From Escherichia coli (GTDB taxonomy: Bacteria; Pseudomonadota; Gammaproteobacteria; Enterobacterales; Enterobacteriaceae), in NCBI RefSeq assembly GCF_003018255.1, contig NZ_CP027440.1: 64,000 nucleotides of DNA; one strand, given 5' to 3'. Each line of letters begins with the position of its first letter. Position 1 is the first letter of the stretch. The position numbers were made by a program, and so were the translations under genes. Below, one piece after another: positions 2,990-35,690 of this stretch. The notes under the pieces were generated by a model. That model was not told the origin of the DNA and did not search any database. It saw nothing but the letters and a program-made list of their open reading frames with translations.

Positions 2990-3117
2990 TGTAGGCCGGA
3001 TAAGGCACTCGTGCCGCATCCGGCAATCAATGCCTGATGCGACGCTGTCGCGTCTTATCAGGCCTACAACTATTGCCGACCCGTAGGCCGGATAAGGCAC
3101 TTGTGCCGCATCCGGCA
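2990..3117. repeat. REP/BIME cluster (three REP units in alternating orientation)
   Basis: Repeated gccggatgcggc...cttatccggcctaca palindromic units between rhaD and rhaA. Confidence 0.8.
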
Positions 3118-11902: not shown

Positions 11903-12042
11903 GTGTAGGCCTGATAAGACGCTATCAGCGTCGCATCAGGCATCCTGCTCAAATGCCGGATGCGGCGTAAACGCCTTATCCTGCCTACAAAACCCATAAA
12001 TTCAACAGGTTTTGTAGGCCTGATAAGCGTAGTGCATCAGGC
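11903..12042. repeat. REP/BIME cluster (three REP units)
   Basis: gtaggcctgataag...gcatcaggc and gccggatgcggcg...cttatcc palindromic units between yiiM and cpxA. Confidence 0.8.
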
Positions 12043-14190: not shown

Positions 14191-14205
14191 TTTACGTTGT
14201 TTTAC
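14191..14205. promoter_or_regulatory. CpxR box (GTAAA-N5-GTAAA, read on the minus strand) in the cpxR/cpxP divergent promoter
   Basis: tttacgttgttttac seen in sequence; the CpxR consensus is established knowledge. Confidence 0.6.
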
Positions 14206-14284: not shown

Positions 14285-14785
14285 ATGCGCATAGTTACCG
14301 CTGCCGTCATGGCCTCAACGCTGGCAGTCAGTTCATTAAGCCACGCTGCTGAAGTCGGTTCAGGCGATAACTGGCATCCGGGTGAAGAACTTACGCAGCG
14401 CAGTACGCAGAGCCATATGTTCGACGGCATAAGTTTAACCGAACATCAGCGTCAGCAGATGCGAGATCTTATGCAACAGGCCCGGCACGAACAGCCTCCT
14501 GTTAATGTTAGCGAACTGGAGACAATGCATCGCCTTGTCACCGCAGAAAATTTTGATGAAAACGCTGTGCGCGCACAGGCAGAAAAAATGGCGAATGAGC
14601 AAATTGCTCGTCAGGTTGAGATGGCAAAAGTCCGCAACCAAATGTATCGCCTGTTAACGCCGGAGCAGCAAGCGGTTTTAAATGAGAAACATCAACAACG
14701 AATGGAGCAGTTGCGTGACGTGACGCAATGGCAAAAAAGTTCATCGTTGAAGCTATTGAGTAGTAGCAACTCACGTTCCCAGTAG
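14285..14785 (+). CDS. cpxP: periplasmic Cpx pathway inhibitor/adaptor CpxP
   Basis: Translation [36 protein letters not shown], 166 aa from the second ATG. Confidence 0.95.
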
Positions 14786-14794
14786 TAAACCCTG

Positions 14795-14852
14795 TTTTCC
14801 TTGCCATAGACACCATCCCTGTCTTCCCCCACATGATGTGGGGGTTTTTTTT
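14795..14852 (+). ncRNA. cpxQ: cpxP 3'UTR-derived sRNA CpxQ (inferred by position) ending in the cpxP intrinsic terminator (14826-14852)
   Basis: Perfect stem cccccacat/atgtggggg followed by a T8 run immediately after the cpxP stop; CpxQ processing from the cpxP 3'UTR is established knowledge; the 5' end here is approximate. Confidence 0.5.
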
Positions 14853-14933
14853 ATCCTCAATTTGCCTGCTGCTTAATGCATTGCAGATGATTTGCTTCCG
14901 TTATACTAGCGTCAGTTGATAGCGGGAGTATTT

Positions 14934-17034: not shown

Positions 17035-17134
17035 TGCCTGATGCGCTTCGCTTATCAGGCCTACATGAATTCTGCAATTTATTGAATTTGCGAACTTTTG
17101 TAGGCCGGATAAGGCGTTCGCGCCGCATCCGGCA
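17035..17134. repeat. REP/BIME cluster (two REP units)
   Basis: tgcctgatgcgcttcgcttatcaggcctaca and tgtaggccggataaggcgttcgcgccgcatccggca between pfkA and sbp. Confidence 0.8.
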
Positions 17135-30221: not shown

Positions 30222-30752
30222 TTACGCTTTGTAGCTTAATTCTTCGATGGTGTGGAAATGGTTGGTATAGATGCAAATGTCGCCTGCAATATCCAACGCC
30301 TTTTCAGCAATTTCACGGGCGCTAAGTTCAGTGTTTTCTAACAGCGCGCGCGCCGCAGCCTGGGCGTAAGGGCCGCCGGAGCCGATAGCAATAAGATCGT
30401 TTTCTGGCTGCACCACGTCACCGTTACCGGTGATGATAAGCGAAGCGGTTTCATCCGCGACTGCCAGCAGTGCTTCAAGTTTGCGCAGCATGCGATCGGT
30501 ACGCCAGTCTTTTGCCAGCTCAACGGCGGCTTTGACCAGATGGCCCTGATGCATTTCCAGTTTACGTTCAAACAGTTCGAACAGCGTAAAAGCATCCGCA
30601 GTACCGCCCGCAAAGCCCGCGATGACTTTGTCGTTGTACAGACGGCGGACCTTTTTCACGTTGCCTTTCATTACGGTATTGCCCAACGTGGCCTGACCAT
30701 CACCAGCGATGACCACATGGCCGTTACGGCGTACGCTTACTATAGTTGTCAC
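30222..30752 (-). CDS. hslV: ATP-dependent protease subunit HslV
   Basis: 176-aa translation [38 protein letters not shown]. Confidence 0.97.
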
Positions 30753-30844
30753 GAGCTGACCCCTTGGTTACGAATACAGAGTACAAACCCCGTACAAAAG
30801 TACGGGGCATAATGCAATTATAGATGGGGGGGATTTTGAGGGTT

Positions 30845-33076: not shown

Positions 33077-35434
<2,358 letters not shown>

Positions 35435-35438
35435 TTAG

Positions 35439-35690
<252 letters not shown>

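Follow-up and report, generated by a model that had tools for sequence, protein, structure and literature searches.

Several small regulatory RNAs (sRNAs) that depend on Hfq are processed by RNase E from the 3' untranslated regions (3'UTRs) of mRNAs, including SdhX, MicL-S, SroC, NarS, and GlnZ (PMC9438474). CpxQ, which is cleaved from the 3'UTR of cpxP by RNase E with the aid of Hfq (PMC9438474; PMC10250213; bioRxiv 10.1101/341578), resembles SdhX, MicL-S, SroC, NarS, and GlnZ in its use of the terminator of the parental mRNA, in its cleavage near the stop codon, in its 5' monophosphate, and in its association with Hfq (PMC9438474). Unlike these RNAs, however, CpxQ derives from a monocistronic mRNA, spans almost the whole of the UTR, and has a protein partner in the same stress pathway. 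Together with Hfq, it represses nhaB, skp, agp, ydjN, fimA, and cfa, an action that protects the inner membrane (PMC9438474; PMC4817254; PMC6755755; PMC10250213; bioRxiv 10.1101/341578). The 5' end of this RNA acts as the seed for both nhaB and cfa (PMC6755755). For example, U7 of CpxQ pairs with nhaB (PMC10250213), and the substitution C11G disrupts repression of cfa, which is restored by a compensatory mutation in the target (PMC6755755).

Here, we describe the cpxP 3'UTR in a 64-kb stretch of Escherichia coli DNA, which we call the window. Positions 14795-14852 on the plus strand almost certainly constitute the gene for CpxQ, a 58-nt, Hfq-dependent sRNA that would lack a promoter of its own, be released by RNase E, and act through a seed. 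The identity of the gene, the terminator, the match to the CpxQ sequence, and the purifying selection on it are results of the present analysis. In the first-pass annotation of this DNA, the CpxQ locus was regarded as known biology, a judgement that the literature shares (PMC4817254; PMC9438474); CpxQ at this locus is already established biology.

The cpxP-CpxQ transcript

The genes at the locus are arranged in the order cpxA (-), cpxR (-), cpxP (+), fieF (+), and pfkA (+), which is the E. coli context according to the list of open reading frames (ORFs) and the RefSeq and MG1655 annotation. The parental mRNA of CpxQ contains the cpxP coding sequence, which in the ORF list occupies 14285-14785 on the plus strand and encodes 166 amino acids plus stop. 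MG1655 cpxP (b4484) maps to the same coordinates, and the RefSeq annotation under 100%-identical matches is 'cell-envelope stress modulator CpxP'. The TAG stop codon (14783-14785) is followed directly by an in-frame TAA (14786-14788), with which the complete 67-nt 3'UTR begins (14786-14852, plus strand). This UTR lies on the same strand as cpxP and upstream of fieF, and its last 58 nt are CpxQ. Two ORFs that overlap this stretch on the minus strand, at 14538-14834 and at 14692-14832, run antisense to a conserved gene and were discounted as mechanical.

A CpxR box of the form GTAAA-N5-GTAAA is found on the minus strand in the cpxR-cpxP intergenic region (14191-14205), 80-94 nt upstream of the cpxP start codon. 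Identified by motif match alone, it is the sole perfect match to GTAAANNNNNGTAAA within the 64-kb window. The consensus and the role of the box are taken from general knowledge of the Cpx regulon, and we assume that it marks the promoter region for the cpxP-CpxQ transcript. Within cpxP, a promoter scan detected no sigma70-like promoter; the missing internal promoter is weak evidence, and would fit a processing origin of CpxQ.

The curated MG1655 ncRNA cpxQ (b4716, 58 nt), which is annotated 9 nt past the cpxP stop codon, maps to 14795-14852 on the plus strand and is identical to the window at 57 of its 58 positions. The single mismatch lies in the terminator loop, where position 14836 is A in the window and C in K-12 MG1655. 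In every other respect compared, namely the locus, the length, the 5' seed, hairpin 1, the terminator stem, and the U8 tail, the RNA is the same as the K-12 CpxQ described in 2016. The proposal of the first-pass annotation that the cpxP 3'UTR matches the CpxQ model is borne out both by this alignment, which it had itself suggested as a check, and by the cpxA-cpxR-cpxP-fieF context. Divergence in the seed region, which it had named as evidence against CpxQ, is absent: nt 1-14 are identical to those of K-12 CpxQ, and with numbering from 14795 the published U7 and C11 fall on a U and a C, which fits a 5' end at that position.

The difference in the loop is common in the species. Among 5426 matching complete-genome E. 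coli records, the 67-nt UTR is 100% identical to that of the window in 4189 and differs by one mismatch in 1235, and the UGA loop predominates in other Enterobacteriaceae genera too. Therefore, it is K-12 that has the minority allele, and the window carries the commoner one. The 5' seed (UUUUCCUUGCCAU, 14795-14807, plus strand) is predicted to be single-stranded, being unpaired in both the minimum-free-energy and the centroid folds, and it is invariant in all 81 sequences compared below. A second seed region is also known in CpxQ.

Taken together with the published work, these features suggest how the RNA would arise and act in this strain, for which processing by RNase E, dependence on Hfq, and the target mRNAs are carried over from the literature. 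Phosphorylated CpxR (CpxR-P) would activate the cpxP promoter through the box at 14191-14205, and transcription would pass through cpxP and end at the intrinsic terminator (14826-14844, with U8 at 14845-14852). RNase E would then cut the cpxP mRNA 9 nt after the stop codon, at CCCUG/UUUU between 14794 and 14795, and this cleavage would free a stable 3' fragment with a 5' monophosphate, CpxQ, to which Hfq would then bind. The coordinates of this putative processing site (14790-14798, plus strand) follow from a 5' end copied from the MG1655 K-12 cpxQ annotation. CCCTG followed by T4-5 is present at the site in 81 of 81 sequences, and UG/UUU departs from the RNase E consensus RN/WUU (as quoted in PMC6755755) in having U, not a purine, at position -2.

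Once bound by Hfq, CpxQ would use the single-stranded seed at 14795-14807 to pair with the nhaB, skp, cfa, agp, ydjN, and fimA mRNAs, with reduced translation or stability as the outcome. The seed has the same sequence as in K-12, the strain in which regulation of the targets was shown; none of the known targets is encoded in the window. One and the same cpxP transcript would thus give rise both to CpxP, a protein of the periplasm, and to an RNA regulator in the cytoplasm, which would jointly relieve inner-membrane stress.

Structure and conservation of the 3'UTR

The terminator hairpin (14826-14844, plus strand) has 8 perfect base pairs, 6 of them G-C, formed between the arms CCCCCACA (14826-14833) and TGTGGGGG (14837-14844) and closed by the 3-nt loop UGA (TGA at 14834-14836). 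It is followed by T8 at 14845-14852 on the plus strand, which would provide both the 3' end of the transcript and the poly(U) tail to which, according to the literature, Hfq is expected to bind; across all 81 sequences this run comprises 7-9 T. The perfect stem and the U8 tail had been recognized at first pass and stand as described, but the stem does not directly follow cpxP, as was then stated, and instead starts 40 nt after the stop codon.

In a loose terminator scan, the number of sites was not above that in shuffled sequences (2 sites versus 2.3 expected, in 2.6 kb). The test was therefore based on strict criteria instead, namely a stem of 8 bp or more without mismatches, in which 6 or more pairs are G-C, with 7 or more T directly after it. 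By these criteria, the two strands of the 64 kb together contain a single site, 14826-14852, and 200 simulated sequences contained none. Folding yields -17.4 kcal/mol; the z score is -2.35 for the 67-nt UTR and -2.74 for the 58-nt CpxQ.

Upstream of the terminator stem, hairpin 1 is predicted at 14808-14824 on the plus strand, where AGACA (14808-14812) would pair with UGUCU (14820-14824) around the loop CCAUCCC. All 5 of its pairs are unvarying across 24 distinct sequences, and covariation thus neither supports nor refutes this helix. In the terminator stem, 2 pairs change in a compensatory manner from genus to genus (A-U/U-A/C-G and C-G/U-A/G-C). Pairing in this stem is kept in 96% of cells, compared with 43-61% when the partner columns are slid, and its covariation score was reached by 0 of 500 shuffles.

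Conservation was measured at 80 cpxP loci from distinct Enterobacteriaceae species, which together with the window make up the 81 sequences. These loci encode CpxP proteins with 71-100% identity to that of the window and were picked by CpxP peptides only, and the selection is therefore unbiased with regard to the UTR. At the 80 loci, 31 of 31 columns are invariant in CpxQ nt 1-31 (14795-14825), as against 33% of columns over all positions of the cpxP coding sequence, 8% at its third codon positions, 5% in its last 60 nt, and 0% in the spacer that runs from U8 to fieF. Conservation is higher in the non-coding CpxQ part than in the coding sequence of cpxP, in agreement with an earlier report (PMC9438474), and on this comparison the non-coding part is under extreme purifying selection. 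Such a pattern is the one expected of a trans-acting RNA whose primary sequence would be read by its targets, by RNase E, and by Hfq, and is unlike that of a bare terminator.

An alternative would be that the region serves solely as the cpxP intrinsic terminator, with a UTR that merely ends transcription and stabilises the mRNA. A strong terminator is certainly present, as it is at the end of most genes, but a terminator alone would be expected to leave the opposite of the pattern seen here: in 81 sequences from many genera, none of the 31 nt upstream of the stem varies, while the stem itself carries compensated changes and the flanks are free to diverge. In addition, a stable, processed RNA whose targets have been validated is documented in the literature. 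We consider it very improbable that the UTR does nothing more than terminate, and read it as the source of CpxQ.

A phage attachment site overlapping cpxQ

Positions 14809-14855 on the plus strand are the attB core of Wphi-type P2-like phages, at which the phage integrase would carry out recombination. The core comprises CpxQ nt 15-58 and 3 nt downstream (ATC), and its length of 47 bp was measured in the present analysis. It is identical at 47 of 47 positions to the attP of phage Wphi, in which the copy sits between ogr and int, and the core sequence is carried by 62 records in the phage collection, among them Wphi, fiAA91-ss, and several P2-like phages of Yersinia and Salmonella. When the 67-nt UTR was used as the query, additional incomplete copies also turned up in many genomes of E. 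coli.

In lysogens the order is cpxP-CpxQ-int ... ogr-core-fieF, with two perfect 47-bp direct repeats, 29.3 kb apart, on either side of a P2-like prophage of 29 kb that separates cpxP from fieF. Since the 47-bp repeats on either side of the prophage are perfect, integration would regenerate an intact CpxQ at attL. The window contains a single copy of the core, and attB is therefore unoccupied here.

Occupied sites are found both within E. coli and beyond it. The core adjoins a Wphi-type integrase in 778 of 5426 complete E. coli genomes (14%), and a Wphi-type Int (67-99% amino acid identity) lies immediately after cpxQ in 6 of the 80 species representatives, with occupation in several other genera. 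The position of the core within near-invariant sequence would explain an integration site that is usable across several genera. A second integrase type was also found at the same cpxP-fieF site. Seven representatives from Salmonella arizonae, Citrobacter, Enterobacter, and Intestinirhabdus have neither fieF nor a Wphi-type integrase in the ~1.4 kb after cpxQ, and there seem to be other insertions or rearrangements at the downstream junction of cpxQ in these genomes. In addition, the record NZ_JBQJRQ010000002.1 (32,330 bp, circular, 'plasmid unnamed3') is a complete P2-like phage genome with tail genes, integrase, Cox, and ogr, together with the cpxQ-derived core. It probably represents a prophage that has been excised or has circularised, and the same integrase is also present on the chromosome of the strain.

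The paper on the genome of E. coli W (PMC3032704) lists the site as 'cpxP-fieF', with Wphi1 (P2), and the Wphi integration site is said to have been identified earlier (PMC3448106). Our search of the searchable library found no literature that links CpxQ to an attB, a prophage, or a phage integrase. The Wphi attB had been catalogued as intergenic (cpxP-fieF) before CpxQ was described. The arrangement is like that of attB sites in the 3' ends of tRNA genes, in ssrA, and in cyaR, where the phage carries the 3' part of an RNA gene and restores the gene upon integration. Unlike those sites in RNA genes, however, the Wphi site has been catalogued as lying between genes. With the overlap described here, cpxQ joins tRNA genes, ssrA, and cyaR as an RNA gene used for phage integration.

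Could the extreme conservation be due to the attB role, for the phage, and not to the function of an RNA? The perfect match to the Wphi attP core and the frequency with which a Wphi-type integrase adjoins it in E. coli and among the species representatives would be in keeping with this view. Conservation by the host for the benefit of a phage would nevertheless be unexpected, and phages presumably adopt sites that are already conserved. Moreover, the invariant block extends 14 nt beyond the upstream edge of the core (14795-14808) and takes in the seed that experiments have defined, and within the core it is the terminator stem that differs between genera, whereas CpxQ nt 1-31 do not. Selection for the attachment site is thus a most unlikely source of the pattern, and function as CpxQ is the explanation that we favour for the invariance of these nucleotides.

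In every Wphi-type P2-like phage, a copy of CpxQ nt 15-58 lies just downstream of ogr and retains the greater part of hairpin 1, including the loop CCAUCCC, as well as the terminator and the Hfq-binding U8 tail. By way of speculation, and with little expectation that it is so, this copy could do more than serve passively as an integration core and could be expressed from the phage, or from the prophage at attR, in a phage transcript of which it would form the 3' end. The product would be a truncated, CpxQ-like, Hfq-binding RNA that might compete with host CpxQ or partly mimic it. If true, phage gene expression would be tied to the envelope-stress network.

Hrs1 and the annotation of CpxQ

Rfam 15 contains no CpxQ family, and a scan of the whole window at its gathering thresholds gave no hit at the cpxP 3'UTR locus. 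In a permissive scan, RF02628 (Hrs1) matched the minus strand at 14780-14852 with 44.5 bits (E = 1.5e-7 in a 401-nt search). This falls below its gathering score of 56.4, and the match is on the strand opposite to the RNA; with 44.5 bits against a gathering score of 56.4, pipelines based on Rfam would miss CpxQ. Plus-strand matches in the permissive scan (NsiR1, RyhB, and others) were rejected as spurious, terminator-type hits. Elsewhere in the window, Rfam naRNA4 matches of 74-79 bits mark REP-type elements at 2994-3064 (+) and 11908-11985 (-), the second just downstream of cpxA. Gathering-level hits to ordinary E. coli features comprise the ES036 (CssrF) sRNA at 17057-17098 (-), the ClpQY (hslVU) promoter element at 30750-30807 (-), and the L31 ribosomal-protein leader at 35419-35471 (+).

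Hrs1 was described in Erwinia amylovora as an Hfq-dependent RNA of ~74 nt, encoded between cpxP and fieF, co-oriented with them, and ending in a 3' Rho-independent terminator (PMC4070566, Zeng and Sundin 2014). In that paper it was classed as restricted to the genus Erwinia (PMC4070566). Hrs1 is nonetheless like CpxQ in its cpxP-fieF location, its strand, its dependence on Hfq, and its Rho-independent terminator, and the reverse complement of the RF02628 consensus aligns with CpxQ, including CCUUGCCA and UCCCUGUCU. From this combination of position, strand, terminator, and reverse-complement alignment, we conclude that Hrs1 is the Erwinia orthologue of CpxQ. The RF02628 model is unlike CpxQ, however, in that it seems to be oriented antisense to the real RNA: its consensus starts with A7 followed by a hairpin, which is the reverse complement of the Hrs1 arrangement, and the model appears to have been built on the wrong strand.

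The orientation of the Hrs1 match, the only significant one from Rfam, would suggest a functional minus-strand RNA that is antisense to the 3'UTR of cpxP. Such an RNA is scarcely conceivable, as on that strand the hairpin is preceded by A8 and lacks a T run after it, so that no minus-strand RNA could terminate there, and the tables of the source paper place hrs1 itself on the strand of cpxP and fieF, with its Rho-independent terminator at the 3' end, coordinate 130143 (PMC4070566). The plus-strand CpxQ gene is the reading that we retain, and no feature of the sequence speaks against it.

Among the RefSeq E. coli genomes listed, no annotated feature lies under the UTR match, and the curated K-12 record differs in this respect. 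The lack of a CpxQ family, along with the strand of the Hrs1 model, probably contributes to the missing RefSeq annotation. CpxQ is a textbook 3'UTR-derived sRNA, and to recognize it at this locus matters mainly for annotation. The overlap with attB and the strand issue in Rfam are useful notes, not discoveries, and leave the verdict of established biology unchanged. A corrected RF02628 model would let pipelines annotate CpxQ across the Enterobacterales.
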